From a virus, in the IMG/VR virus record IMGVR_UViG_3300036719_006047, positions 72,911-136,910 of that record: 64,000 nt of DNA; one strand, given 5' to 3'. The number at the start of each line of letters is the position of its first letter. Position 1 is the first letter of the stretch. Positions 12,708 through 48,171 of this stretch are shown here, piece after piece. Under the pieces are notes generated by a model. It saw only the letters and a list, made by a program, of their open reading frames with translations, was not told where the DNA came from and ran no database searches. The position numbers and the translations under genes were made by a program.

Positions 12708-12742
12708 GGTAGCGCAAGCAGGGTGGGGTTAGGCCCTGTGCG

Positions 12743-12764
12743 GCTTCCGGCTTCGGCCGGGAGC
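12743..12764 (+). terminator. C(UUCG)G tetraloop hairpin after the AAA gene
   Basis: GCTTCCGGC-TTCG-GCCGGGAGC 9 bp stem; no immediate U-tract. Confidence 0.45.
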
Positions 12765-12787
12765 GTCCCCGACGACAAACACTTTTC

Positions 12788-14875: not shown

Positions 14876-14913
14876 ATGCTTCTCCCTCAACTCAACGCCA
14901 CAAGGAGTGAACT

Positions 14914-15096
14914 GTGATCGAATTCTTTGTTCACCTCATCTGCGCCGTAGCCTTGAGCGGCATCGTCTACCAGTTGATCCGTTTCGCATACTTCACTTGG
15001 CTGCTGTACAAGATAGAAAATCGACTTCACTTTCTGGAAACAGAAAGCCAGAAGCTCAGAAAGCGCCAGTGGGATGAACAACAACGCCAGGAATAG
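14914..15096 (+). CDS. Small membrane protein
   Basis: SD AAGGAG; N-terminal TM segment. Confidence 0.65.
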   Translation: MIEFFVHLICAVALSGIVYQLIRFAYFTWLLYKIENRLHFLETESQKLRKRQWDEQQRQE

Positions 15097-15104
15097 GAGG
15101 CGAC

Positions 15105-15680
15105 ATGCTGCGCGGAGAGATCGTACTGCACACAGAGCGCATCTGTGAGGTCGTCGATGTGATCGACGCCAAGTCAGTGAGGCTCAAAACACTTTTCTCG
15201 TCTTCATGCAAACCAGTGCAGAAGGACTCTGTACGAGCGGTACGGGTCGACGCCGTGGAGACAAGAGATCGCGCCGTCGTTCGTCTTAGAGCAAGGCGCG
15301 ATAGATGCGATGAGATCCTCAGCCTTCTCGAGGCGAGGTCTCCGTTTGTGCCGAGCTTCACCCGGCCTCGTCATGGCGAGTTGTCGTCGCGCATTGACTT
15401 CAGCTTGTCTTCGAGCTGGAGAGCAGTTACCTACCCTCACGGCACGACGCACCATTACTTGTTCTACGCGAAGTTTGTTGATGTCGTTGCTGTCGAAGTC
15501 ACAGAATACGATGCCTGCGTCAACTGGTGCTTCTTCTTGCCATTCGTGCCAGACGCGCCGGTACCAGACAGCGGCAACGTGTTCGTCACGAAGACGAAAT
15601 CACCGGCAGATGCTTTGCGAGAAGCGAAAAAAGTATCTGTCGAGAGACTACTCAAACATCTCTCGAAGGACACGAAATGA
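15105..15680 (+). CDS. Hypothetical protein
   Basis: SD GGAGG; 191 aa. Confidence 0.7.
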   Translation: MLRGEIVLHTERICEVVDVIDAKSVRLKTLFSSSCKPVQKDSVRAVRVDAVETRDRAVVRLRARRDRCDEILSLLEARSPFVPSFTRPRHGELSSRIDFSLSSSWRAVTYPHGTTHHYLFYAKFVDVVAVEVTEYDACVNWCFFLPFVPDAPVPDSGNVFVTKTKSPADALREAKKVSVERLLKHLSKDTK

Positions 15681-16234
15681 TGGTCTTGCTCTTGGCCCTT
15701 CAAGTTGCTTTCGCGGACGCGATCTGCCGCGACGGTTGGCGCAGCAGCTCGAGTGGTTCGGGAACGTGTTCGCACCACGGAGGAGTGGCTTACTGGATCC
15801 CGTCGACGTCTTCGCCAGGTACTGCGCCAAGTGGGTTGTATGTATACAAACCCCGCTACCCGCGATACGACTTCGGGCCATTCCAGAACTTCGTTCTCGA
15901 CGTCTACTCAGGGATAAACCCGGACTTGTACCTGGGTTGCTTGACGTGTGATCCCAATCACGACGACCCTGAAATTTGGCTGAAGAGCGTTCGTCGTCGC
16001 GAAGGGAAGTACCACGTCAACGGAAAGTTGTGGGGTTCCAGCACAGATGGATACGCTTCTTGGTATGACGATCACTCGATGTGCAACCCCAAAGCGAAAA
16101 ATCCACCGAAGGTGTTCAACCGTGAAACGAACGAATACGTCGGTAGGTTGACGCTGAACATGAACCTGCCGGACAGCATCAAGGTTCCCGAAGTCATCGG
16201 ATTCATCAACAAGTCTTGCGAGGAGTGGTTGTGA
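15677..16234 (+). CDS. Secreted protein with DUF3761-like N-terminal domain
   Basis: Signal peptide followed by CRDGWRS....GTCSHHGGVAYW. Confidence 0.7.
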   Translation: MMVLLLALQVAFADAICRDGWRSSSSGSGTCSHHGGVAYWIPSTSSPGTAPSGLYVYKPRYPRYDFGPFQNFVLDVYSGINPDLYLGCLTCDPNHDDPEIWLKSVRRREGKYHVNGKLWGSSTDGYASWYDDHSMCNPKAKNPPKVFNRETNEYVGRLTLNMNLPDSIKVPEVIGFINKSCEEWL

Positions 16235-16989
16235 TCAACAATAAAAACATGAAGTTGATGCGTCTCATCTCTGAGAGACAAAAAGCATCATCGGATCCAG
16301 AAAAGCTCGCCTTGACACAGATGATCAAGGCGAACGAAGAGCTGGGAGAGGCGGCGGCTGAGCTGTTGGCGCTGTCGAAATCGAAAAACGCTTCGGCGAG
16401 CGCTGCCGGCAACATCGAAGGCATGCTGGAAGAGCTGACTGACGTCCTCAGCTGTGTGATCGACATGCTCCTGACGCAAGGGGTCACGGAAGAGAAGCTC
16501 AACTCGATGCTTCTCCTCAAACTCAAGAAGTGGGGCTCGAAGCTGTTGCCTCGGCATCACAGCGACCTGGCCATGCATGGAAATCTCGCTGCTTGGACCT
16601 TGTGGGACCGCTCTTACATTGAAGTCCTCTCGTTCAACAAGCTCGACAAGTCGACCTCAGTCATGCCGCGTCCGTTGACTCTCGGCGAGCACAACAAGAT
16701 TTTGCTGGGAGCAACGCCCTACGTATACATGACCTCTCCCGAGAAGCCTATTGCATTGCACCGAAAGGAGGCAACCGACTTTATCGAAACGCTCAACTAC
16801 ATCCTTGCTTGCAATTCAACAGATATGTGGCAGGAAGGTTTTTGCTTCTGCCTTCCCACAAAGTCTGATTTGTTGCAGGCAGGCATTCTCGATGACGACA
16901 CGGACAAGTACTGGTTGTTTCCTCCCGACGACAACGGAACCGAAACGCCAGACACCAAGAAAATGGTCCTTGTCGTTTTCGGACTCTGA
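16231..16989 (+). CDS. MazG-like nucleotide pyrophosphohydrolase with C-terminal extension
   Basis: KANEELGEAAAELL...MLEELTDV (EExxE / EExxD) motifs. Confidence 0.75.
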   Translation: MINNKNMKLMRLISERQKASSDPEKLALTQMIKANEELGEAAAELLALSKSKNASASAAGNIEGMLEELTDVLSCVIDMLLTQGVTEEKLNSMLLLKLKKWGSKLLPRHHSDLAMHGNLAAWTLWDRSYIEVLSFNKLDKSTSVMPRPLTLGEHNKILLGATPYVYMTSPEKPIALHRKEATDFIETLNYILACNSTDMWQEGFCFCLPTKSDLLQAGILDDDTDKYWLFPPDDNGTETPDTKKMVLVVFGL

Positions 16990-20371: not shown

Positions 20372-21069
20372 GATGCACAGAGATGCACTTTTCAAGCGCT
20401 GTTCAGTTGTGGGAGAGTGCTCGGCAGGGTCTTGTCCTTCCCGTCGAGACGATCCAGCAGTATGTGAGTGGCCTGGCTGCGCGTGCTGGCGGTGTTCATC
20501 GCGAGTGTTGGACTCGCTACCTGAAGCTGGCTCGCGCGCTCGATGTGCCGTGGGCAGTTCGTTTGCGGACTGCTCTCGATCGCCGGCTCCCCTGTCCCGG
20601 GGCTTGGTGCGGCCGCCATGAGTTTTACGAGTCGTGGCGTAGCCAGATGGTTGGCTGGTACGAGATGTTCTTGCTCGGCCCCATGAACATCAACAGCGAC
20701 ACCGCTCCTCCTGCAGTGCGAGAAGGTCTTGTCGTGTTCCGCGACAACGTCCTTTCTTGTGCTCAGTTCGACGGTTCTTTGCTGTTGGTGTTCATCGAGA
20801 ACGTCGACAAGGACAACGCCCGAATCACAAGCATCTTCGACATCTCGTTCGACGACACCATCACTGTTGCGTTCGGCAACAACACGGAGATGACAAAGTT
20901 CGAGGACACGCCTGAGCCCGTGCCTGTTGTCCGTGCCCACTTCAAGCTCAAGGACTTCCCCGATATCCTTTGGGGCCAGGCGTACGAGAGTGACAAACCT
21001 GTGCGTGATGACAGTGCGCAAGCACGCGAACTGATCGAGAAACTTGCCCCCAACACCCTGTCCAAGTGA
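20368..21069 (+). CDS. Hypothetical protein
   Basis: 233 aa; overlapped at both ends. Confidence 0.7.
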   Translation: MRCTEMHFSSAVQLWESARQGLVLPVETIQQYVSGLAARAGGVHRECWTRYLKLARALDVPWAVRLRTALDRRLPCPGAWCGRHEFYESWRSQMVGWYEMFLLGPMNINSDTAPPAVREGLVVFRDNVLSCAQFDGSLLLVFIENVDKDNARITSIFDISFDDTITVAFGNNTEMTKFEDTPEPVPVVRAHFKLKDFPDILWGQAYESDKPVRDDSAQARELIEKLAPNTLSK

Positions 21070-21080
21070 GGAACATCAAC

Positions 21081-23501
21081 ATGACCACCATCAAGTCCCT
21101 GACTGAGATCCGCTACACCAAGATCGACCTGTCCGACTTCGGCATCAAGCCCGCAGAGGTGCTGACCCCTGCGCACCACATCGTCGTCGTGGACCGCTCC
21201 GGTTCCATGTACTCCGACATCACTCACGCGCGCGACATGCTCATCCAGACCTTCGCCACCGCCACGGTGCTGAAGCCGCACGTCAAGGTGAGCTTGCTGT
21301 CCTTCTCCTCGGAAGGTGATCTGACGTCGCACTTCGAGAAGGTGCCGGCGACCGACGTCTCGGATCCCAAGTACGTCAGCGCGATCAAGAGCATTCACGC
21401 AACCGCGTTGACGTGCATCTCGCAAGGCATGCTCGCCGCGCTCAAGCTCGTGACGCCGGCAGAGCCGACGGCCATCACCTTGTTGACCGACGGCTACGCC
21501 AACGACCGCTCGCCGTCCACCGAGATCGCGAAGCTCAACGCCTTCGTCGAGGAGGCCCGCATCATCCCCGGCTTGTTCGTCAACTGCATCGGCTTCCGCA
21601 GCTGGTGCGATTGGAACCTGATGCAGAAGATCGCATCGAACTTGGGCGGCAAGTGCGGCGAGGCAAAGACCTTCCTGGACGTGCACAAGGTGCTGTTCGA
21701 GGTCAACACAGCGCTGTCCGGCAACGTCTCGCCCATCATCAGCATCGGGCAGCCGGACGCGGAAGGTACGCTCCTCGCGGTCTGCCTCAAGCCCGAGAAG
21801 GTGGTCATGGCCAAGAAGGGCAAAGAGCTGATCTTGCCTTTCTTCGACACGAGCCTTGGCGACATCGATAAGATCATTCAGGTGTTCAACATCACCCCGA
21901 AAGGCGCTGAGAGCTACAAGAAGGCGGCGAAGTTTACGAACACCCTCAAGGCGGACAACGCGGAAGAAGCTTTCCGGGTTCTCGCGGCCTACGCTTCCGC
22001 CCTCGTCGGTTCGCGTGAGCTGCGTCTGGCCAAGGAGTTGCTGTTCCTGAGCGGCAACAAGTCGCTTTACGAGGAGTACTGCACCGCCATCACGCCGCTC
22101 GACCTCGTCGGAATGCAGATGGCGCTCGAGGAGTGGGCCTACATCGGCAGCACCCACTACACGATGGGCAAGAACATGAAGCCCAAGCTCACGTTGTCGG
22201 ATCTCGAAAAGCTGCTGTCAGCGACGACACCGCATCTGGGTTTCGACTTCGAGATCGATACCGACAAGTTCTGGGAGGTGTACACCCGGCGCAGCACCTC
22301 CCGGGTCGAGGGCACCGTCAACGAGCACGGAGAGCACATCCCGTTGCAGTTTGAGCTGTACGCGACCAACGCGCCTCAGATTCGCGGCTTGTCGATCAAC
22401 ACGAGCGAGGCGACCATTCAGGTGGAGACGGTGTCGCCTGCACTGGTGCGGGACAAGACCAACGGTCAGACGCTGATGAACTGCGAAGGCGTCAGCCTCA
22501 TGAACCTCAAGAGCTACCGCAGCTTCACCCTCATGAGCAGCGGTGCTTGGAACATCCGCTACCTTCCCGTCAAGCCGGTCAACCGTGCCGGCGCCGAGAA
22601 GCTGTGCAGCATGTTCCCTGACGCCAACCGCAAGAGCGTCGATGTCGGTGACAGCTACCTGATCGACCTCAAGAAGTTCAACGCGGTCAATCCCGAGGCG
22701 ACTGCGACCTGGGCTGCGGTGCAGGCCGCAGCTTCCTCGATGGCAGTTTACACGGCCAACATCAAGTTCTACAGCGCGATGCTCAGCAAGGCCGATGCGT
22801 CTCCCTTCTCGGAGAAGCAGGTCAGTGAGCTGAAGCGCTTCTACTTGACGCCGGCCTTGTACTGGTCGCCGCCCACCGTCGAGAAGTACAAGATCAAGGA
22901 TGCCGACGGCGGGGTCGGTCTCGATCACGCCATCAAGACGGGCAAGGTCGACATGTACACCCGGTTCTCGGTGTCGTTCGGCACGAACAAGATCCTCACC
23001 AAGGACGAGTTCCCGAGCGCCAACGAGTTCCTGGCCAAGTTCTACTTCGTCACCGAGGCCGGAGGCGCCAAGATCGCCAAGCCCAAGGTGCAAGACCTCC
23101 TGCAAGGAGGGAAGTTCGAGCTCAAGCCCTTCGCAGAGAACCGCATGAGCCATGCGCACAAGCTGATGAAGGCCGTTCTCGAGAACATCGACTTCGGCAA
23201 GATCAAGCAGTCCGAGATCGCCACGAAGCTCAAGGGGTTCGAGGCCGACCGGGAACGGGCCTACAGCGAGCTTCAAGGCATCACGCTCTACATCGGCTGC
23301 CTCGGCATGCTGCCCGAAGAGCTGGAAGCCGAAGGCGTCGTCGCTCTCACTGGAGAGGAGCTGGAGCAGAAGACGGGCGGGAAGCTCTCGAAAGATGAGC
23401 GGAACGGGATGTTCTTCATGCTCAGCAACGGACACGAACAGGACGGGGGAGAGTACGGGATCATCGGAGTCACCCCCAGCAACGCGTACTTCTCCCGATA
23501 G
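21081..23501 (+). CDS. Large von Willebrand A (MIDAS) domain protein
   Basis: VVVVDRSGSM, conserved T and LLTDG MIDAS motifs; about 600 aa unannotated C-terminus; SD GAGGA. Confidence 0.85.
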   Translation: MTTIKSLTEIRYTKIDLSDFGIKPAEVLTPAHHIVVVDRSGSMYSDITHARDMLIQTFATATVLKPHVKVSLLSFSSEGDLTSHFEKVPATDVSDPKYVSAIKSIHATALTCISQGMLAALKLVTPAEPTAITLLTDGYANDRSPSTEIAKLNAFVEEARIIPGLFVNCIGFRSWCDWNLMQKIASNLGGKCGEAKTFLDVHKVLFEVNTALSGNVSPIISIGQPDAEGTLLAVCLKPEKVVMAKKGKELILPFFDTSLGDIDKIIQVFNITPKGAESYKKAAKFTNTLKADNAEEAFRVLAAYASALVGSRELRLAKELLFLSGNKSLYEEYCTAITPLDLVGMQMALEEWAYIGSTHYTMGKNMKPKLTLSDLEKLLSATTPHLGFDFEIDTDKFWEVYTRRSTSRVEGTVNEHGEHIPLQFELYATNAPQIRGLSINTSEATIQVETVSPALVRDKTNGQTLMNCEGVSLMNLKSYRSFTLMSSGAWNIRYLPVKPVNRAGAEKLCSMFPDANRKSVDVGDSYLIDLKKFNAVNPEATATWAAVQAAASSMAVYTANIKFYSAMLSKADASPFSEKQVSELKRFYLTPALYWSPPTVEKYKIKDADGGVGLDHAIKTGKVDMYTRFSVSFGTNKILTKDEFPSANEFLAKFYFVTEAGGAKIAKPKVQDLLQGGKFELKPFAENRMSHAHKLMKAVLENIDFGKIKQSEIATKLKGFEADRERAYSELQGITLYIGCLGMLPEELEAEGVVALTGEELEQKTGGKLSKDERNGMFFMLSNGHEQDGGEYGIIGVTPSNAYFSR

Positions 23502-24288: not shown

Positions 24289-24720
24289 ATGTACTTCAAC
24301 TACAACGTGGCTCCGGGAAGAATAACGATCGTGAAATGGTCGAGTGAATACTTGATCGGCTTCTCGGTTGTGTTCGCGCCGAACGAGAACAACGAGATCG
24401 TGTCGGACAAGGTCATCATTCAGGCAAAGCAAGAGTTGTACGGTTGGTGCGTGAATGGCTCGATGGTAAGCTACTGTGGGCTACACAATGTCACCAACCC
24501 GATAATGCTGGATGGGATGAACGCCCTGTCTCTGCCCAAAATCAAGAAACTCCAAAAGTTGTTTGAGCCCTCATTCCAAGGAGAGCGCTTCGTATTCATC
24601 GCGGAGTGCGGATTGCACAGCGAGCCAGAGTTGTTGTTCCAGTGTGAGATGAAGCCTCTCGTAATACAGAGGGGCATGTACAACGTAGAAAGACCAGTGA
24701 CTCCATTCAAGCCGAAGTGA
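24289..24720 (+). CDS. Hypothetical protein, first gene of the paralogue operon
   Basis: SD GAGGAGG; 143 aa. Confidence 0.75.
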   Translation: MYFNYNVAPGRITIVKWSSEYLIGFSVVFAPNENNEIVSDKVIIQAKQELYGWCVNGSMVSYCGLHNVTNPIMLDGMNALSLPKIKKLQKLFEPSFQGERFVFIAECGLHSEPELLFQCEMKPLVIQRGMYNVERPVTPFKPK

Positions 24721-24729
24721 GGGAATGCG

Positions 24730-25596
24730 ATGAGCAAGCACGTAGAGCACAAAATTCAGGTAGTCGAGTCGACTTACTACGCTCGCGGGGTGACGTTGTC
24801 GTTCACGACTGAGCTGTGGCGAAACGAGAGCAAATTCGATTCCGAGCATCTGCTCGAATTGTTCTCAAAAATAATCAGCATCGTCGTGAGAGAGCGCACC
24901 GAAGAAATGAACGACATCCAGCCCAGGCTGGGATGGCGCGCAAAGAGGTTGCGCTTCTGCTTGGATTTTGGGTGCAGCACAGGGCAAATCTACAAGTTCA
25001 ACTCGCTGGCGAAAGACATTCACACAATACACTCAGAGGAAGAAAGCAAAGCCGAAGAGGAGAGGTTGATTTTCATCCCAGGGAACCTGCCCGACGTGAT
25101 GAAGAACATGTCCGCAGGAGAGCTCATAGCGCACTCCATTGAATCGGTCGATGCGGTAGAAATCAGCGTCGACACTTTGCTCGATAAGTCGTTATACGCA
25201 GTCATCTACAATGCGACCGAGCTCAGCAAGTACCGGTCAAGTTCGATTTTGTCGAGCAAAGAAAGCATAGTCGAGGAAGTGAAAGCGGTCAGGTCCAAGA
25301 TCAAAGTCTACCAAGAGAGGCAGCGCCTCAACGCTTTCCGCGCTCCTGAGAAGATTAAGGTAGAGATAAGAAACAAGCTGAGATCGCTGACGAACAAGGC
25401 CGGGGGCACTTTCTACTACGCAGAGCACAACGCAAACGACATCAAAGTGAGACTGAAGCTGGTCGAAGAAATGCTCGAGAAGAGCGGCGTCAGCGAGGAG
25501 ATGAAGAGCAATGTGCAGGCTGCTTTGAAGCGCATAGAAGCAGTTCGCGCAGAGCTGAAGGCAGTCAAAGAACTTGTCGAGAAGGAGCTGCTGTGA
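24730..25596 (+). CDS. Paralogue family member 1 (WRN-motif, C-terminal coiled coil)
   Basis: LWRNESKFDSEHLL; SAGELIAHS. Confidence 0.8.
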   Translation: MSKHVEHKIQVVESTYYARGVTLSFTTELWRNESKFDSEHLLELFSKIISIVVRERTEEMNDIQPRLGWRAKRLRFCLDFGCSTGQIYKFNSLAKDIHTIHSEEESKAEEERLIFIPGNLPDVMKNMSAGELIAHSIESVDAVEISVDTLLDKSLYAVIYNATELSKYRSSSILSSKESIVEEVKAVRSKIKVYQERQRLNAFRAPEKIKVEIRNKLRSLTNKAGGTFYYAEHNANDIKVRLKLVEEMLEKSGVSEEMKSNVQAALKRIEAVRAELKAVKELVEKELL

Positions 25597-26501
25597 CTGA
25601 AAGGGCTGACACAACCATAGTTTCGAGAAGCTTCACGATAGGCAGGCCACAAAATACAAGAACAATTTGTTTCGAGGTGTGGCGAAACAGGAGCCTTTTC
25701 GACAGCGAGGACCTGCTGAGCATCCTTTGCGGGTACTACAGCAAGTTGCTGAACTGCACGTTCGACGCTGATTTCGACCCAGAAGGCGAAGCTGCTTTCC
25801 TGGCAGGCATGCCAGAAAAAGTAGTTGTAGGCGTAGTAGCGGACTGTGTGGCCAACAACCATGCAGGCATAATTGTAATCCGGTTTGGCGAACTCACTGA
25901 GGCCGTTGTAGCGGAGAGACAGCTGGTAGAAAAGTCGACAAAAATGTTCTTCTTGAGAGTTTCGCTGCCCGACCCTCGAACTTCCCTTTCCGCGAGCGAG
26001 CTGTTCGCTGCTTCCACAGAAGAGAACGAAAGTCTGGTACTCAGCTTGAAGCAGCTCGGGATAAAAAGTCTACTCGATGCGTCTTCTGTCAGCGTGACGA
26101 CGAGCATGCTGAACAAGACGTTCTTCTACCGATCAGAACTGAAAGAGAAGTTTACTCTGGTTGCGGAAGCTCTTCAGAAAGAAATACCTACCGTTGTCGT
26201 CCACGCCAAAAAGAGGAACGTAGATGCGTTCTGCAGTGCGAGCACGAAGAGCTCGATCGCAGAGAACAGGTGCAGGCAGCTGTGGGAGTCTTCAGGGCCT
26301 CTCATGAAAGCATCGCAAGCGATCAAGAATGCTGAATTTATGTGTCTCGAAACGCAGCGACTCGCAGAAAGAGCGATGGACGCAGGGTCGAGCTCAGACG
26401 CGGTCCACAAAGTGAAGCGAATATCGAGTGAGTTAGCAGAAATCCAAAAAAGAATAGACGAAATCATCAGCGAGGCAGAGAAAATCGAATGGCAATCGTG
26501 A
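25593..26501 (+). CDS. Paralogue family member 2
   Basis: VWRNRSLFDSEDLL; SASELFAAS. Confidence 0.8.
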   Translation: MTERADTTIVSRSFTIGRPQNTRTICFEVWRNRSLFDSEDLLSILCGYYSKLLNCTFDADFDPEGEAAFLAGMPEKVVVGVVADCVANNHAGIIVIRFGELTEAVVAERQLVEKSTKMFFLRVSLPDPRTSLSASELFAASTEENESLVLSLKQLGIKSLLDASSVSVTTSMLNKTFFYRSELKEKFTLVAEALQKEIPTVVVHAKKRNVDAFCSASTKSSIAENRCRQLWESSGPLMKASQAIKNAEFMCLETQRLAERAMDAGSSSDAVHKVKRISSELAEIQKRIDEIISEAEKIEWQS

Positions 26502-27457
26502 CAGCGAAGCAGCCTCTAGTGAGCGAGATTCGCTCGCTCCGAGAAGCAGGAGGCACAGGAAAAAAGATCAAGGTCAGCGTGTGGCGCAACACCACGATCT
26601 TTGACGCAGGCGATGTTGCTCGCCTTTGCGCGGCTGTGTCGATCTGTACACAAGAAAGCAATTACTTCATCCAAGAAGAGCCGCAAGAGTACAAGTTCGT
26701 CTTGCTCAACAAGAAGCAGGAGAGATTCTTTGCGGTGAGTGCCTTGCAAAACGTATCGCTAGCAAAAGTAGCTGCTTGCCCTGACATGACCTTAGAGTGG
26801 TGGTCCTCGCCTCCGGGAACCACAGGCAGTAAAGTGATCTACGCGTCGAATCAGCTGGCTCAGTCGTCTGCAGCAGAGATCGTTAGCCGAGAACTCGACT
26901 GCTCAGACCCGAAAAGGCCCTTGTTCAAGCTCACGCGAGAAGAGGTGGCTTGCGTTGTGGGAACGATGTATTACGACATTATTTCTGCCTTCGATTATCG
27001 GGAAATCAAAGACTGGCCCATCAGCAGCATAGCGAAAAAGGCATCTCCAATCCGGGAACTGTTCGGGAGAATGCGGCAAAGCGAAAAAGAGATCAACCCG
27101 AACCACCCCGTCATCGCGGGCGTGATCGATCAGATCGAGGAAATGCTGCATCCGCACCCGCTACAGCTGAGATTCGCGAAGAAGCCATTCTCTTTCAGCG
27201 TGTCCCCCGAGAGAGAAAAGCTCCAATTGCTGGAAACGAAGCTGGACAACAGGCGCTGTCGAATCATGACAGCACAAAGAAAGTTGGTTCGACTGATGAG
27301 CAGCAAAAAAGCATTCATTAGCGAACCCTGGGCGTCAGAGGGGTACGATGAAGTGTTGAAGAAGATCGAGCAGTCGTATGAACTGCTACGTGCAGCAGAG
27401 CATGAAATCAGGCTAATGACCGAAAAAGCATTCACCAAGAGGCTTGAAATCAAATGA
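26489..27457 (+). CDS. Paralogue family member 3
   Basis: VWRNTTIFDAGDVA; SAAEIVSR; LRFAKKPFSFSVSPERE. Confidence 0.8.
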   Translation: MAIVTAKQPLVSEIRSLREAGGTGKKIKVSVWRNTTIFDAGDVARLCAAVSICTQESNYFIQEEPQEYKFVLLNKKQERFFAVSALQNVSLAKVAACPDMTLEWWSSPPGTTGSKVIYASNQLAQSSAAEIVSRELDCSDPKRPLFKLTREEVACVVGTMYYDIISAFDYREIKDWPISSIAKKASPIRELFGRMRQSEKEINPNHPVIAGVIDQIEEMLHPHPLQLRFAKKPFSFSVSPEREKLQLLETKLDNRRCRIMTAQRKLVRLMSSKKAFISEPWASEGYDEVLKKIEQSYELLRAAEHEIRLMTEKAFTKRLEIK

Positions 27458-28419
27458 GCTACACTCCGAAAGACCCTGTCGTTGCTCCCATCCGTGTGGA
27501 GTTCACTCCCGGCCCGTCCTTCAGCGCGAAACCCAGAAAACAAGTGGGCTTCTTGTGGAAGAACACGTCGATTTTCCACAGCGAAGATCTGTTGCGTTTG
27601 TTGCTCATCGTAGGCGCGATCACAGATGAAGACTCTCACTACGAGAATCCGAAAGAAGAAAAACACTTCGTCTTTAGTACCGACACCAGCGCAAACTGGG
27701 TCAACATCGAGCGGCCTTGGCGCAGGAGTGAGCACATGTACGACGTGTCTCCTGTGATGAAAGAATTGTTGACGGAACAACGCTCAAGCAGCTACTACTG
27801 CAAGATCGTGATTGCCACCAATCACCCGGCCAAAGAGACCAGCGCGGAGCTCTTCTCCCGAACCATCGACAACAGCGACGGCAAGTCTTACTTCCTCCTT
27901 CGCGACGAAGAAGTGATCGAATTGGCCGTTTCTGTCGTTAACTCCATGTACAACAGGGCGTCTGCCGAACTGCAAGCTATTTTCCGGGAGACGTTCTTCG
28001 GAGGCGTAGACATCAACAGCTTCCACAGCAGAAAATACACTGTGCAGTCTGCGCGAGAGACGTGCGCAAAAAGAGTCGAAGAATTCATTCGCATGGCCTG
28101 CGATGACAAGATCCCGAAGATCAGGTTCAGCAACAAGCAGCTCTTCTTCAGCACTTCCCCCGACAGAGAGCGGCTCGGTGAGATGCAAAGAGCCTTCAAG
28201 ACGAAGGCGTACGATGTGAGAGCTGTGCGAAAAAAGTTGCTCAGCATCAAGAAGGTGTCAGAAAAGCAGCTCAAGATTGAGTTTGCAAAGGAAGCGAACG
28301 AAGCGGCAAGACAGCACTTGATCAAGGCGGCGGAAGAGTTGATGAAAGCGGAACAAGCGATGCAGCATGCGATTGACGAAGCTGCGAAGAACTACGACAG
28401 GATCTCGGAGGTCAAGTGA
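27454..28419 (+). CDS. Paralogue family member 4
   Basis: LWKNTSIFHSEDLL; SAELFSR; IRFSNKQLFFSTSPDRE. Confidence 0.8.
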   Translation: MSYTPKDPVVAPIRVEFTPGPSFSAKPRKQVGFLWKNTSIFHSEDLLRLLLIVGAITDEDSHYENPKEEKHFVFSTDTSANWVNIERPWRRSEHMYDVSPVMKELLTEQRSSSYYCKIVIATNHPAKETSAELFSRTIDNSDGKSYFLLRDEEVIELAVSVVNSMYNRASAELQAIFRETFFGGVDINSFHSRKYTVQSARETCAKRVEEFIRMACDDKIPKIRFSNKQLFFSTSPDRERLGEMQRAFKTKAYDVRAVRKKLLSIKKVSEKQLKIEFAKEANEAARQHLIKAAEELMKAEQAMQHAIDEAAKNYDRISEVK

Positions 28420-29357
28420 AGAAAACTAACCCACAATCAGCAGAGCACAAAGGCCACACAGCTTTCGTCTGGAAGAACAACTCCAACCTGTACGGGCCCG
28501 ACTTGGCGCGGTTCGTGTTAGGCGTCATGTCTGTGTCGAATGAGCGCAAGTGCAGAGAGAGCGAAGAGGACAAGGAAGTTCACTTGATCTTGTTGTCCTC
28601 GAAGAGGCTAAACAAGGTTCAAACCGTTGGCAGTTACAGCCCTCTGCTGACGAAAAAGATGGTCGCAAGCTGCCCCAACATGCTGTACATGCTTGAGGGG
28701 GCGGGTCAGTTGCACTTCAATCACAGGATCTTCCACGTTCCCGACAGGTACTCAGAAGAATCGCACTCACAGAAAATCACGAGAAGGATGAGCAAAGAAG
28801 GCAAGTTAGACCTCTTCAGCCTCAACGGAGAGGAAATCGTCGACATAGCCATAGCGGTATTGAAGTACAGTTGGAACAGCTTGCCGTATGAAGGCACAAA
28901 AGAATTTTGCGATACTCTTGGCGTAGCGGCAGACGTGATGGCTCGCCTTCTGAACATCTCATGCCTCGAAACGTACTTTTACGACAGAGAGGTAGTTGAG
29001 TTCAGGCAGAATCTGGGAGACAAACTCCTCGCAGAGTTCAATGTCACGCGCATCGAAGACATCAACCTCCGCTTCAGGTACCGCAAGTTCAGCTTCCACA
29101 CTTGCAGAGACAGGGAAAGAATCAAGGAAGAGAACCAAGTACTGCTCAAAGACTGGCAAAATTTGAAGCAGAGTGCGAAGTACATCAAAATCTGCATCGA
29201 AAGGAAGCTCAGCGCTTTTGCAGGAGCGGCTGCGATCGAGGAATTTGAAGCGTCAAAGCCATTGCTACAAGAAGCTTTGCTCAATCTCCACAAGGCTATG
29301 CAGGCCTACGAACTCACCAACAACAAACTCCGGGATGCCTACGATGCGACTCTCTGA
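28416..29357 (+). CDS. Paralogue family member 5
   Basis: VWKNNSNLYGPDLA; LRFRYRKFSFHTCRDRE. Confidence 0.8.
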   Translation: MKKTNPQSAEHKGHTAFVWKNNSNLYGPDLARFVLGVMSVSNERKCRESEEDKEVHLILLSSKRLNKVQTVGSYSPLLTKKMVASCPNMLYMLEGAGQLHFNHRIFHVPDRYSEESHSQKITRRMSKEGKLDLFSLNGEEIVDIAIAVLKYSWNSLPYEGTKEFCDTLGVAADVMARLLNISCLETYFYDREVVEFRQNLGDKLLAEFNVTRIEDINLRFRYRKFSFHTCRDRERIKEENQVLLKDWQNLKQSAKYIKICIERKLSAFAGAAAIEEFEASKPLLQEALLNLHKAMQAYELTNNKLRDAYDATL

Positions 29358-30459
29358 TCTGGCTGATGTCATCTTCTCCACTTGGAAGCACAACCCCACT
29401 CAGTCCATCTTCGTCATGGGGCCGCCCGGCATCGGCAAGACCTCTGTCGCGGCCGCCGTTGTGGATCGCATCCGAAAGTACAACACAGACAACAACGTCC
29501 AGGGCCCCGTCGTCTGCCACATCAAGGACCTGTCGTCTTCGTTGCCCGAAGACCTCAACGGTCTGCCGAAAACGGACGGCGAGGTGATGCGCTTCGTTCC
29601 CGACACCTGGCTCGCCGAGTGCTGCAACCCTGAAGCCTCCGGCATCCTCATCCTCGACGACCTGCCGGCAGCGACTGCTTCCATTCAGGTGGCAGCGCGT
29701 CAGCTCGTTCTCGACAAGCGCATCCACGAGCACAGGCTGTCCAGCAAAGTCATCGTTGTCGTAACTGGCAATCGTCGTGAGGACGCTTCTGCGGCCAAGA
29801 CACTCCCCGCTCACTTCCGCAACTCCGTGTTGACGCTCGAAGCTGAGGCGAACTTGGCGGACTGGACTTCGTGGATGCGCTCCAAGGACGCAGACCGCTC
29901 CGTGACGGACTTCCTGGCCTTCCGGCCGCAGCACTTCTCTCGGCTGCCCGTCAATGCCGACCAGCGCGGGGTGTTCGCAACGCCTCGTACCTGGAAGATG
30001 CTGTCCGACCTGATGCCGGTCGCTCTCGAGACCAAGAAGCTGTTCGAGATCAGCGCCGGTCTCGTTGGCGAGGGTGTGAGCGCGGAGTTCGTGGCCTTCA
30101 AGGACATGAGTGATGCGCTGCCTGACCCCAAAGCCGTGCTCGAAGACCCCTACAAGCACTACCCCAGCAACCACGACATCTGGTCCAACCGCCCCGACTT
30201 GATGGTTGCCGTGCTGTCGGGCATCTCGTACTACGCAGGCAAGGCCAAGAAGACAAAAGACTTTGTTCCTGTCGACGCTTACGTGAAGGCTGTTGCCTAC
30301 TTGTGTTCCCGGTCCACCGAGTACTTCGAGTTCGCTTTCCAGGCTTTCCGCGACAGTGGCGGTCGCGAAATGGCTTTCTTGACGGCCGCGCAGCAGCTGT
30401 CGACGACTGACTCGCGTGTGGCCCAGCTCAAGGCCAAGCTCCGTGAGGTGTTCGCGTGA
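29344..30459 (+). CDS. MoxR-like AAA+ ATPase, copy 1
   Basis: GPPGIGKT, LILDDL, VTGNR, PAHFRN and TPRTW motifs. Confidence 0.88.
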   Translation: MRLSDLADVIFSTWKHNPTQSIFVMGPPGIGKTSVAAAVVDRIRKYNTDNNVQGPVVCHIKDLSSSLPEDLNGLPKTDGEVMRFVPDTWLAECCNPEASGILILDDLPAATASIQVAARQLVLDKRIHEHRLSSKVIVVVTGNRREDASAAKTLPAHFRNSVLTLEAEANLADWTSWMRSKDADRSVTDFLAFRPQHFSRLPVNADQRGVFATPRTWKMLSDLMPVALETKKLFEISAGLVGEGVSAEFVAFKDMSDALPDPKAVLEDPYKHYPSNHDIWSNRPDLMVAVLSGISYYAGKAKKTKDFVPVDAYVKAVAYLCSRSTEYFEFAFQAFRDSGGREMAFLTAAQQLSTTDSRVAQLKAKLREVFA

Positions 30460-31628
30460 CTAGCAGAGAAGAGACTTTCGCTCGTTTCTCGAAGGCGAGA
30501 ACTTGGTTGATCGGCCGGATGCCTTTCTTCGGGCACCTGGCTCTCAACCTCAAGCTCGATCCTGTGGCCGGGGAAGATCAAGGAGTAGAAACGGCTTGCA
30601 TCTACCCGACGGGTGAACTCATCCTCAACGACAAGTTCGTCGCGTCGTTGACCGATGCTCACTTCAGGTTCGTTCTGGCCCACGAAGTGCTGCATCCAGC
30701 ATTGTTGTGCCATGTGCGCCGCAAGGGCAGAGATCATCTCGTCTTCAACATGGCGCACGACTACGCCATCAACTTGATCATCACAGAGGCAGTCGAAACG
30801 GCAAAAGAGCACAACAACTGCTGTATGCCGCTCAAAGGGCTCATCGATAACGCTTACAAAGGCCTTTCCGCAGAAGAAATCTACGACAAGCTGTTGGAGA
30901 AAGCAAGCATCGCTTATTACGCAAAAGGAGGCTTCGATCAAGACGTCGCAGAGAAAGAAGCCAAGACTGAGGACAAGGAGCAAGACAGCATCTGGAAAAT
31001 GCGTCTCGCGGCTGCGAGCGTAGCGGCTTCTCGCTCGAAGAGAGGCAACATTCCTGCCGGGTTGCAGAAGATCATACAAGAGATTTTGCAGCCCCAGGTG
31101 TACTGGCTTGATGTTCTCGCGGAGTACGTGTCGGGTTGTTTGGGCGGAGACATTTTCACTTACAGCAGGCTGAACCGCCGGTCAGAGGGCGCAGGATGCA
31201 TCCTGGCCGGAAAGATCAGCGATGAGATGCCCGAAGTGACAGTGTTGTGGGACACGAGCGGTTCGCAGCAGGGGTGGGAAGACACCGTTTTCGCGGAGCT
31301 GAAAAAGCTGCAAGATGACATGGCGGTGCCCTTCCGGCTCATGATCATCGATACCGTGTTGTACGCAGACATGATGGTAGACGACGTCGACGATACTCTT
31401 TCACAGCTCAAAGGTGGCGGCGGCTCCGACTTCAAACCCGCTTTCGAGAAGCTCGAGCAAGAGAACAACCAGTCAGTCGTCATCGCATTCACAGACGGCG
31501 CGATCGGTGTGCCAGAGACACCGCCACCGTTGCTCAAAGATGTCATCTGGGTGCTGACGGGACACTATTCGAGCCCCCCGGCACAGTACGGCCGCTCGAT
31601 CTACATCGAGAAAGGAAAGTCGAAATGA
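30456..31628 (+). CDS. DUF2201-type HExxH metallopeptidase-like plus vWA protein, copy 1
   Basis: LAHEVLH, NMAHDYAIN, WDTSGS, GGGGSDF and FTDG motifs. Confidence 0.88.
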   Translation: MTSREETFARFSKARTWLIGRMPFFGHLALNLKLDPVAGEDQGVETACIYPTGELILNDKFVASLTDAHFRFVLAHEVLHPALLCHVRRKGRDHLVFNMAHDYAINLIITEAVETAKEHNNCCMPLKGLIDNAYKGLSAEEIYDKLLEKASIAYYAKGGFDQDVAEKEAKTEDKEQDSIWKMRLAAASVAASRSKRGNIPAGLQKIIQEILQPQVYWLDVLAEYVSGCLGGDIFTYSRLNRRSEGAGCILAGKISDEMPEVTVLWDTSGSQQGWEDTVFAELKKLQDDMAVPFRLMIIDTVLYADMMVDDVDDTLSQLKGGGGSDFKPAFEKLEQENNQSVVIAFTDGAIGVPETPPPLLKDVIWVLTGHYSSPPAQYGRSIYIEKGKSK

Positions 31629-32413
31629 AAGAAGGCGATGCCATCACGCACTTCGACAACTCTTTGCTAAACCCAGAACTGGAGGGAAATCCGAAATACT
31701 GCTTCCGGATTCGAGTGATCGGCAACAACACAGAGCTGAGCACACAGCACGTAGAGAACACGGTCAACAACGCGCTGCGGCTTGCCTGCGAAGAAGACAA
31801 GCTGCCCGCTTCTGTGTCAGAGAAGCTTGAGCCGGTTTACACGCTGTTGGTGCTGAACCGGTTGAGACGAACAAGCAAGCGGGACTGGCAGTTGTCGCGG
31901 TTTGTTGAAAGCTGTCGCCTGTTCGCCAAGGTGAGCTCCATTTACGCCCTGAAACAGGTAAAGCCAAAAATGAGAGTGTCACCTGCTCTGTTTGTGTTGG
32001 ACGTGTTTGACGCATCAAAGGTCTTCAGCGCGTCAGAGCTGATCGCTTTTTCTTCTCCCACAGGACTTGTTGTCCCCGGTAGTGAGATTGCAGGGCTTGC
32101 GTCATACGTGCTGCAGAGGCTCGAAAACCCCGACGATGTCAGATTTAAGCGGCGAGATGAGATACTGGTCCGAGTGTGCGCGGAAGCTCTGATTGCGACA
32201 AGGAAGCCGAAGCAAGAAGGTGTAACCGCCAAAGAAGCAGTAGCACTCGGCAAGAAAATCGCAGCGCACCGCACTCGGCGGCTGAAGATGGAAAGGCTGC
32301 AGAAGAACTTGAGAGAAGCACAAAGAACCCTAGCAAAGCTGTCCCGAGATAGCCGCAACGATCTCAAGCAAGACATGAAAGACTTCTACACAAAGGGGAC
32401 TCGCAAGAGATGA
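31625..32413 (+). CDS. Paralogue family member 6 (most divergent)
   Basis: IGNNTELSTQHV; FSASELIAFS; C-terminal coiled coil. Confidence 0.7.
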   Translation: MKEGDAITHFDNSLLNPELEGNPKYCFRIRVIGNNTELSTQHVENTVNNALRLACEEDKLPASVSEKLEPVYTLLVLNRLRRTSKRDWQLSRFVESCRLFAKVSSIYALKQVKPKMRVSPALFVLDVFDASKVFSASELIAFSSPTGLVVPGSEIAGLASYVLQRLENPDDVRFKRRDEILVRVCAEALIATRKPKQEGVTAKEAVALGKKIAAHRTRRLKMERLQKNLREAQRTLAKLSRDSRNDLKQDMKDFYTKGTRKR

Positions 32414-32994
32414 ACGACCGCACGTACCGCTTCCCTCTGAAAAAAGGCGCGAAGCTCAAGGAAGACAACGGCTACGCTCTGTTGGCGGGATTGACCTCCA
32501 TCGCTCCGTTCCTTCACGGCAGGGAGAGTGTCCAGATCGCACCTATCGCGGGATCTCGCGTCAGCAGCGGTGTTCTCGTGACTGACGCACGAAGCAAACT
32601 GCAGGTGAGAGGCATCACCCGGGAAGAAGCTGAACTGCTCCAGAAAAAGACTTTTCACGTTTCGGGAGAGGAGGTTGAGACTGGCCTGTTCCAGGAGGTG
32701 AAGTTTGCGTTCTTCCCCTGCTTGGCTTCTCGCCTTGTGATCTTCCGAGATGTGTTCAGCAAAGAGCAGTTCATCGAGAAGGTCAAAGAAGTTGCAAGGT
32801 CAGGCGATGTGGAGCTGGGGCGCCGGAGAGTGTTGACTCTCAAGAACAACAGCATGATCGGCTTCAGCGTGGTTTTGAAAGGACTGAAAGAAGAAGATTC
32901 GATCCGACTTCAGGCGGAAGGGATGGGCAAGTTCACGTCGATGGGTTGCGGGGTGTTTCACCACTTCCGACCGAACAGCACTCAACTGCGATAA
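32410..32994 (+). CDS. cas6: Solitary CRISPR-associated endoribonuclease Cas6, type I-MYXAN (Cmx6)-like
   Basis: FPL...L..DNGYALL, LASRLVIF, GFSV.L.GL..EDSIRLQ.EGMGKFTSMGCGVF (Cas6 G-rich loop). Confidence 0.85.
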   Translation: MNDRTYRFPLKKGAKLKEDNGYALLAGLTSIAPFLHGRESVQIAPIAGSRVSSGVLVTDARSKLQVRGITREEAELLQKKTFHVSGEEVETGLFQEVKFAFFPCLASRLVIFRDVFSKEQFIEKVKEVARSGDVELGRRRVLTLKNNSMIGFSVVLKGLKEEDSIRLQAEGMGKFTSMGCGVFHHFRPNSTQLR

Positions 32995-33074
32995 GCGGCA
33001 GAGGTAGACGATGAAAATGAACTTTGATTGTGTGCCGGAAGAGATGCTGTAGCCCCTGCCTGGAGGAACTGGAA

Positions 33075-33686
33075 ATGAAGTCAGTCGCTCATCCGAAAAT
33101 CCGCACCATGTGTGAGATGGCTTGCCGGATTCGAGACATGTACGGGTACAAGTGGGTCTTGCACAAACCCAAGCACATCGAATGGCTGTTGTCCGACTCT
33201 CCCATCGGCCCATTTTCGCTCAAGTTGACGGGAAGAAAGAGGAGCAACTTTGTAGTGCTGTTATCGGCCGGTCCTTTCGACGGATGGACCGGAGGCAGCG
33301 AAACCTGCCCCGAAGAGCAAAAGTACTACGCAGCTCTGATCCACGAGATGAGCCACCTGACGCTCATGGATGGTTCTCCTGAAGACATGGGCACCGAAGA
33401 AGAAGGTGTCGTGCTCGAGACCGCGTGGCTTGATGCTTTGAGACCGACAAGGGAGATCAGAGCCGGGTACCGGGAGTACTCTATCGACAAAACAGAGATA
33501 GTCATAGACTACGAGAAGTGGGCCACCATGAACTACTCCGATATTCGAGGCCCGAAGAAGATGAAGTGGTGGGAGGAAGCACAGAAAATTTTGATCGAGA
33601 AAGGCGTCTTGACCAAAGGTGGCGCCCCGACCTGGAAGCGTACGAGGATGGGAGATGCCAAACACTCTGCCCGAAAATTGGTTTGA
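33075..33686 (+). CDS. HExxH zinc metallopeptidase-like protein
   Basis: ALIHEMSH followed by a downstream EE motif; SD GGAGG. Confidence 0.65.
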   Translation: MKSVAHPKIRTMCEMACRIRDMYGYKWVLHKPKHIEWLLSDSPIGPFSLKLTGRKRSNFVVLLSAGPFDGWTGGSETCPEEQKYYAALIHEMSHLTLMDGSPEDMGTEEEGVVLETAWLDALRPTREIRAGYREYSIDKTEIVIDYEKWATMNYSDIRGPKKMKWWEEAQKILIEKGVLTKGGAPTWKRTRMGDAKHSARKLV

Positions 33687-33921
33687 GGTAACACCAGCCT
33701 GCTACGAGTACAGGTGCTTTCCGTTCGATACGGACAAATACGGCAAACCGAAGCCGGGAACAGCATACCTCACTGTCGTTACGGTACAGAAGCGAGAAAA
33801 CTCTATCGAGGTCAGCATAGACTCTTTTTCCGGAGGCTACGCTGACGGAGCAGCCGCACTGTCGACAGAGATACCGTTAGAGATTATAAATCGCTTGATA
33901 GCAAGCAGACCGAAGGAGTGA
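33655..33921 (+). CDS. Hypothetical protein; 3' end lies inside direct repeat 1
   Basis: 88 aa ORF. Confidence 0.6.
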   Translation: MPNTLPENWFEVTPACYEYRCFPFDTDKYGKPKPGTAYLTVVTVQKRENSIEVSIDSFSGGYADGAAALSTEIPLEIINRLIASRPKE

Positions 33922-41564: not shown

Positions 41565-41848
41565 ACGCGGCAGAGAAAGTCGCCAAGATCAGAGAAGCGC
41601 AAAAAGATCTATTCCTACAGGAGATGCGGATCAGGGCAGAGATCGAATGGGTAATCAACGAGGAGTTTGGGGCAGAGTACGAATCGTTGGTTTCCTTGGC
41701 CCACATGCAACAAGGAGTTTTGCTCGGAGCGAACAAGATAACTATTTTCTTGTCTACGGGACCCCCTTTAGCTTCGCAGGAAATCCTCCAGCAAAAGATG
41801 AAGAATGTTGAGCAGAAGACTGGAATTCCAACAGTACTTGGGCTGTGA
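41561..41848 (+). CDS. Hypothetical protein
   Basis: SD AGGAG; GTGA overlap. Confidence 0.6.
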   Translation: MNAAEKVAKIREAQKDLFLQEMRIRAEIEWVINEEFGAEYESLVSLAHMQQGVLLGANKITIFLSTGPPLASQEILQQKMKNVEQKTGIPTVLGL

Positions 41849-41888
41849 CCACGACTGAACCGCAAACACAATAGGCAGGAAGAAAGTT

Positions 41889-42272
41889 ATGCCGATCTAC
41901 GTGTGTTCTGATGGCAATGGTGTGCTCGAGATCGAGGCGGATAGCGGGGAAGCAGCCGCCCATGATTACGTCGACGGAGGCGAGTGGGGCCACAACAACA
42001 AAACCTTCTGGATCAACGTCCGCGTCACCGAGAAGGGCACCAACGACACTGAGCTTCACAAGATCGAAGTGGAACCCGAGGAGCCCGAGTGTGAGGACGG
42101 CAACGATCACCACTGGCGTGAGGTTTCGATGAGGGGCAACGCAGGCGGCGTGATTACCACGTCTCGTTGTGTGCATTGTGGCAAGGAAGTGACAGTGAAC
42201 ACCTGGGATTACGATCCGCAAGATGGACAGCAAGCACTTTGCAGCGTCGAGTACGGGATGCAGGAATGCTGA
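41889..42272 (+). CDS. Hypothetical protein with Zn-ribbon-like C..H..CVHC
   Basis: 127 aa. Confidence 0.7.
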   Translation: MPIYVCSDGNGVLEIEADSGEAAAHDYVDGGEWGHNNKTFWINVRVTEKGTNDTELHKIEVEPEEPECEDGNDHHWREVSMRGNAGGVITTSRCVHCGKEVTVNTWDYDPQDGQQALCSVEYGMQEC

Positions 42273-42835
42273 TCGCTTTCTCTGGTAAGAAGGGAGCAGG
42301 CAAGGACACTTGTGCGGTCATCCTCGACTTCATCGCAAAGTCGGAAGGGATGCAGACCTACACTGTTGGCTTTGCTGATGCGATGAAGAGCATTCTCGGC
42401 ATGATCTTCCGGGTGAACCCAAAGATCTTTTACGACAACAAGGACACGCCCAACGAAAGCCTCAAAGGCAAGACGCCCAGAGGTGTGCTGATCTCTTTCG
42501 CCAAGTGGGTGCGGGAGACCAAGGACGACGCTTGGGTGTCTCACGTGCAAGTGGCACTTGAGAGTTTGGGTGGTCCTGACAAGCTCAATATGGTGACGGA
42601 CTTGAGGCACGTCATCGAATACGAGGCTCTTCGAGGCAAAGGAGCCATCCTCGTTCGAGTCATCCGTCCTGGCACGGAGAACGAAGACGACATCTCAGAG
42701 ACCGCGCTCGACGACCACGAGTTCGACTACGTCGTCTACAACAACGGCACAATCTTAGACCTCACGAAGACTCTCCAGAAGTTGTGGCAGGACATCAAAG
42801 ACAAGGAGCAGGAACATGCACTTTCTTTCTCCTGA
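42266..42835 (+). CDS. Deoxynucleoside monophosphate kinase
   Basis: IAFSGKKGAGKDT, FADAMK, VTDLR..EY and SETALD motifs. Confidence 0.88.
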   Translation: MLIAFSGKKGAGKDTCAVILDFIAKSEGMQTYTVGFADAMKSILGMIFRVNPKIFYDNKDTPNESLKGKTPRGVLISFAKWVRETKDDAWVSHVQVALESLGGPDKLNMVTDLRHVIEYEALRGKGAILVRVIRPGTENEDDISETALDDHEFDYVVYNNGTILDLTKTLQKLWQDIKDKEQEHALSFS

Positions 42836-43904: not shown

Positions 43905-43929
43905 TCTGTACGAGCACTCTGGAGGTCCC

Positions 43930-48169: not shown

Positions 48170-48171
48170 AC

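Follow-up and report, generated by a model that had tools for sequence, protein, structure and literature searches.

A virus contig of 136,910 bp from IMG/VR (record IMGVR_UViG_3300036719_006047) ends in a stretch of 64,000 nucleotides (positions 72,911 to 136,910; hereafter the window) that contains, at window positions 24289-33921, one unbroken row of plus-strand genes as given by the map of open reading frames (ORFs). In the middle of this row a gene for a MoxR-like AAA+ ATPase adjoins a gene for a protein that combines a zincin-type HExxH metallopeptidase domain with a vWA-like domain. Five tandem paralogues (p1-p5) precede this pair, and a possible sixth paralogue (p6), a solitary Cas6 and a small HExxH protein are encoded beyond it. 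We take the row to be a single accessory operon whose genes are translated together, in a freshwater phage that has not been cultured. Results described as contig-wide cover the full 137 kb. A sequence-only reading of the same row had described six divergent paralogues that would each target a different host protein for counter-defence or host takeover, and that might be remodelled or loaded by the embedded ATPase/vWA pair. Its observations were confirmed save for the sixth member and the meaning of the base composition, and its interpretation is partly supported by the data given below.

The genes of the operon are tightly packed, with 4-nt overlaps at six junctions, 13-14-nt overlaps at two and short gaps at two; the earlier claim that all of the genes overlap is thus nearly correct. 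Stop/start overlaps couple p1 through Cas6. Within the row, promoter-like and terminator-like sites were no more frequent than in shuffled sequence. The G+C content of the paralogue block is 0.50-0.52 versus 0.60 upstream, a difference that had been noted before. However, the G+C content at third codon positions (GC3) of the paralogues is 0.58-0.70, which is normal for this genome (0.63 +/- 0.09). As the dip sits in codon positions 1 and 2 and GC3 is normal, it is attributed to amino-acid composition, and a foreign island was ruled out as its explanation.

Genes of the operon (window coordinates; start alternatives are separated by a slash)
Feature	Coordinates	Strand	Evidence and remarks
orf143	24289..24720	+	ORF list; first operon gene; no match in Pfam, PHROG, NCBIfam or PADLOC
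p1	24730..25596	+	288 aa; subgroup A paralogue
p2	25593..26501	+	302 aa; subgroup A paralogue
p3	26489..27457	+	322 aa; subgroup B paralogue
p4	27454..28419	+	321 aa; subgroup B paralogue; member modelled
p5	28416..29357	+	313 aa; subgroup B paralogue
MoxR-like AAA+ ATPase, N4 gp24 type	29344..30459	+	PHROG 1297; start set here because the orthologue begins MRLSD at this point
Zincin (HEVLH) + vWA-like protein, N4 gp25 type	30456..31628	+	390 aa; PHROG 1314
p6	31625..32413	+	262 aa; possible sixth, very divergent member; strongly basic helical tail
Solitary Cas6/Cmx6 (type I-MYXAN Cas6)	32410..32994	+	PF09559, TIGR02807
Small HEMSH (HExxH) protein, candidate zincin	33024/33075..33686	+	220 aa; translation
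orf100	33619..33921	+	ORF list; predicted, last small ORF of the block; no family match

The five adjacent genes of about 300 codons upstream of the pair had been recognized as paralogues having low identity outside a few motifs, and this was borne out by BLAST, hhalign and a signature scan. In BLAST comparisons p1 aligns with p2 (E 7e-7 over 221 aa), and p3, p4 and p5 align with one another (p3 with p4, E 1.6e-12; p4 with p5, E 1.3e-11; p3 with p5, E 3.7e-7). Subgroup A (p1-p2) and subgroup B (p3-p5) are joined only via an N-terminal signature of ~30 residues (hhalign E 1.7e-4, probability 49%). By these comparisons, p1-p5 are judged to be true paralogues that fall into two subgroups.

The motifs ascribed to the family by the sequence-only reading fared differently. 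The N-terminal W(R/K)N motif, which had been given to six proteins, was found in p1-p5 and not in p6, and its core, W[RK]N.[ST].[FLIVM], is confined to p1-p5 among the six frames of the contig. A central SAxEL motif had been thought common to all. In the form SAxE[LI] it is present in p1 (SAGEL), p2, p3 and p6, but in p4 the S-A-E-L residues are displaced by one residue and in p5 the motif is degenerate. The third motif, RFxxKxFxFxxxxDRE, is indeed present in the three members p3, p4 and p5, and also in the p5 orthologue, when written as RFxx[KR]x[FL]xFxxxx[DE]RE (p3 reads RF..K.F.F....ERE). The C-terminal coiled coils that had been noted stand as helical tails: those of all six proteins contain many helix-forming residues and little proline or glycine, but a heptad signal is clear in p1 and p4 only. 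Five of the six tails are basic (pI 8.6-11.2), the p2 tail having a pI of 5.9. Across the family, the W and N of the signature are the sole invariant residues, a pattern that points to proteins that bind or act as scaffolds and not to enzymes. The paralogues have no catalytic motif in common.

The claim of a sixth member is less secure. The p6 protein carries VIGNNTEL at position 30 and SASEL at position 134, which are collinear with two motifs of p1-p3, but comparisons with the family profile gave E values of only 0.03-0.5 (best hhalign E 0.03, probability 1.7%). It has orthologues of its own (75% and 39% identity), and its C-terminal 90 aa have a pI of 11.2. We consider p6 a probable, not proven, member of the family.

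A HMMER profile search of 1.84 billion representative proteins found the family only in this phage lineage. The proteins listed numbered eight, the eighth being a spurious plant repeat protein; the matches were the window's own paralogues or near-copies of these (n = 5) and orthologues of p4, p5 and p1 (n = 3, ~39-57% identity). A word-indexed search of 5.8 billion proteins gave near-identical copies plus one 57% relative of p4 and nothing else. Searching GenBank phages with p4 by tblastn gave no match, and scans of IMG/VR using p4, Cas6 and the ATPase gave no close relative. 

In a related phage, represented by the metagenome contigs L008 and L009, the gene order p2-p3-p4-p5-ATPase is kept. 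Orthologues of individual paralogues were identified for p1 (P0010, 44% identity), p2 (its C-terminus, upstream of the p3 orthologue on L009, 35-37%), p3 (on L009, 41-42%), p4 (P0004, 57%) and p5 (P0009/L008, 39-43%). Orthologues resemble each other most in the N-terminal signature and in the linker that carries the RF...DRE motif. As each paralogue has its own orthologue in the relative, the duplications predate the split of the two phages, in agreement with the earlier description of the family as old and diversified. The ratios of nonsynonymous to synonymous substitution (dN/dS) versus the related phage, calculated by the Nei-Gojobori method, were 0.26 for p3, 0.22 for p4 and 0.31 for p5, with dS saturated at 1.7-2.3. 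As these ratios lie at 0.22-0.31, the paralogues are considered real, constrained genes under purifying selection. Over its first 108 residues, the ATPase shares 89% identity with that of the related phage (dN 0.06, dS 0.55), and thus the paralogues (35-57% identity) diverge several-fold faster than the ATPase encoded next door.

No fold could be assigned to the family. In an AlphaFold2 (AF2) model of p4, which has a mean predicted local distance difference test score (pLDDT) of 72.8, an alpha/beta domain (residues 13-215) is followed by a linker and by helices at 236-266 and 270-320. The poorly modelled linker holds the RF...DRE motif. Modelling the domain by itself gave a pLDDT of 67. Going by the p4 model, each member is taken to have an alpha/beta domain of ~220 aa that bears the signature and a helical tail, which in p3-p5 are joined by a short conserved linker. 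Searches of Pfam, PHROG, NCBIfam, PADLOC and PDB sequences gave no match for the paralogues: Pfam run over all 12 family members found nothing in common, the PDB profile search returned coiled-coil noise only and PADLOC returned only P-loop-level matches. Together with the GenBank phage searches, these results agree with the earlier statement that no described system could be recognized. Foldseek comparison of the p4 model with PDB and BFVD, the structural check that had been proposed, found nothing at E 0.001 or better, and in the VIA-align search with the full model most of the signal came from the C-terminal helix. Note that VIA-align typically gives a best Z of 7-8 for models having no true match. 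Two other origins were tried and rejected. Descent from the operon's ATPase, zincin-vWA protein or 220-aa HExxH protein was rejected at the sequence level (hhalign probability 0.1-0.2%). An AAA+ fold was rejected given that the TRIP13, Rpt and spastin rows of the Foldseek output have TM <=0.15 and a root-mean-square deviation (rmsd) of ~20 A and that none appeared in the VIA search. Protein-atlas matches to Mrr-like PD-(D/E)xK nucleases (0.78-0.83) lie within the range of shuffled controls and serve as a lead only.

The identity of the embedded pair is clear from database matches. The ATPase matches PHROG 1297 (E 6e-57) and has Walker A (GPPGIGKT) and Walker B (LILDD) motifs; its Pfam AAA match is E 1e-4, and on AAA_5 (PF07728) it scores 18.5 bits versus a cut-off of 22, the first ATPase copy of the contig scoring 30.8 bits. 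Depositors annotate homologues of it, such as those of rV5-like coliphages, as 'MoxR ATPase', and in the records of N4-like phages the two genes of the pair are named N4 gp24-like and gp25-like. The adjoining gene, which shares a 4-nt overlap with the ATPase gene at 30456-30459, matches PHROG 1314 (E 1e-66), DUF2201_N (PF13203, E 8e-24) and DUF2201 (PF09967, E 1e-10), and its product has an HExxH metallopeptidase domain at the N-terminus followed by a vWA-like domain at the C-terminus. On these profile matches we assign the pair to the known N4 gp24/gp25-type module (PHROG 1297 plus PHROG 1314). When GenBank phage records were searched by tblastn, the ATPase was found in 728 and the zincin-vWA protein in 318, and the homologues of the pair include those of N4-like phages, rV5-like coliphages, cyanophage S-TIM5, Bacillus phage G and Thermus phage phiFa. 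In S-TIM5 the two genes adjoin as they do here, whereas in the N4-like phage CB1 they lie in one cluster with two ORFs between them. On the contig itself the pair occurs three times in diverged form, at contig 41843-45076, at window 29344-31628 and at window 48627-51040, and the last copy is 40% and 35% identical to the operon pair; HEVLH is invariant across all three zincin-vWA copies. Three such pairs within one phage is unusual. Hence the AAA/vWA identification of the sequence-only reading is upheld by Pfam, PHROG and NCBIfam, but the pair is not peculiar to the operon: it is of a widespread N4 type and is present in three copies. Both central genes of the operon are adjoining members of the pair described by Iyer et al. 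2021 (PMC7824862), but that description contains neither an embedding among five to six orphan paralogues plus Cas6 nor a triplication within one phage. Two further genes with related domain names lie elsewhere in the window, one for an 811-aa protein with a classical vWA domain (21066-23501, GC3 0.88), just upstream of the operon control region, and one for a further AAA ATPase (PHROG 2376) at 11415-12707.

The gene that follows p6, to which it is joined by a 4-nt overlap, encodes Cas6, as the sequence-only reading had stated. It matches PF09559 with E 3e-32 (112.7 bits versus a cut-off of 26.7) and the NCBIfam equivalog TIGR02807 with 103.6 bits (cut-off 98.85), and in PDB it matches the type I-B Cas6 chain 8fcj_B (E 2e-13). 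The protein keeps the glycine-rich loop and most of the residues that are invariant among relatives of 37-44% identity. By these matches the gene is a bona fide type I-MYXAN Cas6/Cmx6 that is apparently intact. It resembles such proteins (8fcj_B being a relative) in profile and glycine-rich loop, but here it is array-less and coupled to non-CRISPR genes: neither the window nor the 137-kb contig contains a repeat-spacer CRISPR array, PF09559 is the sole cas match in the contig with no other cas genes present and Rfam gave nothing over the whole window. A scan of genome contigs using the Cas6 alignment found nothing. A complete Cas6 in a phage that has no CRISPR array is a candidate for protein-based interference with the processing of host CRISPR RNA (crRNA). 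The 220-aa protein encoded further downstream has the HEMSH motif, which preserves the HExxH observation, but the peptidase assignment gained no family match, as Pfam, PHROG, NCBIfam, PDB and PADLOC were all negative.

The contig is found almost unchanged in 24 lake-water metagenome runs, all of which are DNA metagenomes (no RNA run is listed among them), and the copies in four runs are near-identical. Its nameable genes encode a family-A-type DNA polymerase, several helicases, a primase, ParB, an endolysin-like protein, rIIA, a deoxynucleoside monophosphate (dNMP) kinase and a GP88-like protein. Among the genes of the 137 kb we recognized none for capsid, portal, terminase or tail. CheckV nevertheless gives the contig a completeness of 85%; the structural genes may be too divergent to detect, or the full genome may far exceed the contig in size. 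The source is probably a large phage, and as no virion gene was recognized and the neighbours are of replication and rIIA types, we place the operon in the non-structural part of the genome.

Paralogue arrays also occur near such pairs elsewhere. Thermus phage phiFa (MH673672.2, locus L002 10303-14321), whose zincin-vWA protein is the closest GenBank homologue of that of the operon, has four tandem paralogues of 250-360 aa (phiFa_27/26/25/23; pairwise E 4e-4 to 2e-26) located 1.2 kb downstream of its zincin-vWA gene. The phiFa record does not annotate the four as a family. The likeness to the present operon is in having tandem hypothetical paralogues near the pair, but the phiFa array is downstream of the pair rather than upstream, and its protein family is unrelated to p1-p5 (hhalign probability 0.06%). 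On the present contig, the first pair (contig 41843-45076) is 1.4 kb from a 16-copy pentapeptide-repeat array. This array occupies contig 46475-61137 (loci L005/L006) on the minus strand, and consists of sixteen tandem paralogous genes of 150-320 aa that are 30-60% identical, with 8-nt spacers at roughly half of the junctions and an SNF2-like helicase gene interrupting the array. The genes have an internal periodicity of 15 nt, GGTGAGGTTGGCGCC and variants, encoding pentapeptide-type repeats. An IMG/VR scan with the ATPase alignment gave one distant locus only (L010, 31% identity), which has no obvious array.

Cellular and viral MoxR-vWA chaperones provide a working model for the operon. In RavA-ViaA, CbbQ-CbbO, NorQ-NorD and p618-p892 of Acidianus two-tailed virus (ATV), a vWA adaptor docks the client protein and the MoxR hexamer remodels it. 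The operon differs from these systems in that the vWA protein also carries a zincin domain and the ATPase falls below the Pfam AAA_5 cut-off. We propose, with a probability of roughly 0.35, that the paralogues have no enzymatic activity and act on host targets as adaptors or clients of the ATPase-vWA-peptidase machine. The MoxR-like ATPase and the zincin-vWA fusion protein would be the conserved engine, in which the vWA domain would dock the paralogues and the ATPase would remodel, and/or the zincin would cut, the paralogues or the host proteins that they hold. In this way the array could equip a single machine with several specificities, for use in host takeover or counter-defence. The operon would carry Cas6/Cmx6 and the small HExxH protein as additional cargo, Cas6 most plausibly binding or cutting host type I-MYXAN pre-crRNA or phage RNA. 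The physical link between paralogues and machine, the host-directed role (with separate host proteins as targets of the members) and the role of Cas6 are the parts of this scheme that we infer.

Several observations favour the adaptor/client proposal. The genes are translationally coupled, the p5-ATPase order is kept in the related phage and arrays lie near pairs in phiFa and, as pentapeptide repeats, on this contig. Moreover, with the probable member p6 encoded beyond it, the pair has the family on both sides and not on one alone. Purifying selection, divergence faster than that of the ATPase, confinement of the family to this lineage and the invariance of W and N alone also agree with the proposal. 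The genomic context also fits, consisting of genes for DNA polymerase, helicases, primase, ParB, rIIA and dNMP kinase in a contig where no virion gene was recognized. Outside support for a counter-defence role, which the sequence-only reading had offered for the paralogues, comes for the embedded module only. In the HIDEN-SEQ study (Nat Microbiol 2026), coliphage Bas54 was found to depend specifically on its MoxR ATPase bas54_0063 for overcoming DS-28, a predicted defence system (PMC13716836). The operon ATPase belongs to the same family, although the relation is distant and the comparison was made via the sister phages Bas50 and Bas57, whose genes bas50_0064 and bas57_0062 it matches (E 3e-13, ~28% identity). 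Both of these genes adjoin rIIA and have the same annotation and gene index as bas54_0063. Unlike the present contig, the rV5-like coliphages Bas50 and Bas57 have no array of this paralogue family.

Other observations weigh against the adaptor/client proposal. The association of the paralogues with the ATPase and vWA protein is drawn from gene context. Large phages commonly carry tandem paralogue arrays, three of the four other phages inspected (N4-like CB1, S-TIM5 and Bas57) have no such array flanking the pair and neither of the other two pairs on the contig has a member of the W[RK]NxS/T family alongside. In addition, over a few bases dS falls from ~1.8 (p5) to 0.55 (ATPase), and thus the paralogue block and the ATPase may have had separate recombination histories, although the higher GC3 of the ATPase (0.80) could contribute to the drop at this border. 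Finally, the role proposed for the MoxR plus metallopeptidase-vWA pair of jumbo phages is in virion assembly (Iyer et al. 2021, PMC7824862).

The shift in dS and protein divergence at the p5/AAA border is what would be expected of independently exchanged modules, and unrelated accessory genes are commonly strung together in phage operons. These points, together with the two other pairs that lack the family and the basic tails in five of six members, would fit paralogues that are stand-alone nucleic-acid- or host-factor-binding proteins, acting through their basic helical tails and having only a transcript in common with the pair. We consider this somewhat unlikely given the tight translational coupling, the p5-AAA order kept in the relative, the location of the probable member p6 beyond the pair and the orphan array near the pair in phiFa. 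A role in the virion would take the paralogues to be structural, scaffold or ejected proteins, with the MoxR-vWA-zincin pair carrying out assembly and proteolytic maturation. The tail growth of ATV, in which a MoxR-vWA pair has a role, provides a parallel. Beyond the assembly role put forward for jumbo phages, the long, partly heptad-patterned helical tails would suit oligomerization, the S-TIM5 pair lies beside Hsp20 and one virion structural gene and the genes downstream of the operon encode surface-type domains (FGE-sulfatase/CLec and FG-GAP). This explanation is nevertheless unlikely: the operon lies amid replication and rIIA-type genes in a contig where no virion gene was recognized, N4-like and rV5-like phages place the pair in an early/middle region beside rIIA, the HIDEN-SEQ study suggests that a homologue acts against host defence (PMC13716836) and PHROG structural families give the paralogues no match.

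Two further explanations concern what the paralogues are rather than the pair. Zincin catalytic domains are the one recurring theme of the fold searches and cover most of the p4 domain, for which the model order beta-alpha-beta-beta-(alpha)-beta-helix fits a zincin. In the VIA-align domain-only search the best Z was 4.6, below the noise level; M1 aminopeptidases gave Z 4.6-4.9 with an rmsd of ~4 A for 104-121 residues over model residues 9-220, and YbeY, Wss1, lugdulysin and collagenase were among the weak matches, all of which also fall below noise. Foldseek gave aminopeptidase N at a probability of 0.44-0.54, and the BFVD rows included SprT-like proteins, a peptidase and an IrrE-like protein. 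Hence the N-domain might be an inactivated zincin in which SAxEL occupies the place of HExxH, with the Glu kept and both His lost, and the paralogues might serve as decoys, inhibitors or substrate-holders for the active zincins of the operon. Within the paralogue N-domain no His is conserved, and the candidate position reads [SAG]E[LI][IFV][AS]. We regard a pseudo-peptidase as improbable, as every score is under the noise level of the tool, hhalign to the zincin-vWA and 220-aa HExxH proteins gave probabilities of only 0.1-0.2%, there are other leads (AAA+ and Mrr-like PD-(D/E)xK) that are weak and mutually inconsistent and the domain-only model reached a pLDDT of only 67. The earlier suggestion of a structural check thus yielded a zincin-like signal that lies under noise. 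The remaining explanation is a CRISPR-derived ribonucleoprotein, RNA-guided or RNA-bound, in which the paralogues would form a heteromeric Cas7/RAMP-like backbone with Cas6. A complete Cas6/Cmx6 is in the same coupled operon, the paralogues have a Cas7-like size and basic tails and the p4 model has a beta-alpha-beta-beta-alpha-beta segment. However, this is extremely improbable given that the 137 kb have neither a repeat-spacer array nor another cas gene, Rfam found nothing, the fold searches list no Cas7/RAMP chain and the paralogues have no Pfam or NCBIfam Cas match.

The adaptor/client proposal can be extended to a more general form, which we consider quite unlikely as a whole. The gp24/gp25-type module might be a general phage platform that uses lineage-specific, fast-evolving arrays against host defences, represented here by six adaptors of new fold plus a captured Cas6/Cmx6 acting as an anti-CRISPR versus type I-MYXAN. 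The gp24/gp25-type pair is among the most widespread of the phage gene pairs that lack a known mechanism, and one member is now tied to counter-defence. If orphan arrays are indeed the adaptors or clients of the pair, then the arrays would name its substrates and make the mechanism testable; if the paralogues are unrelated passengers, they are one more orphan family in a large phage. The novelty lies in the orphan family, in the way that it encloses the pair along with a solitary Cas6 and in the presence of three copies of the pair in one phage, the core pair being already known.

Other features of the contig lie outside the operon. Two adjoining 850-aa paralogues that are 46% identical and have a repeated 25-nt sequence in common are encoded at contig 3653-8760 (locus L003); neither has a PHROG match. 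A cluster of iteron-like short repeats, ACGTGTCGCACGTGACGT at 27-nt spacing, is found at contig 63445-63618 (locus L006) and is followed at contig 64785-66015 (locus L006) by three copies of a ~530-bp repeat. These repeats may be of origin or regulatory type and are not CRISPR-like. A DNA polymerase gene at contig 11776-16581 (locus L003) encodes 1601 aa, of which residues 359-513 match pieces of PHROGs unrelated to it (PhoH, ribonucleotide reductase (RNR) and thymidylate synthase), a pattern that would be expected of an intein insertion.

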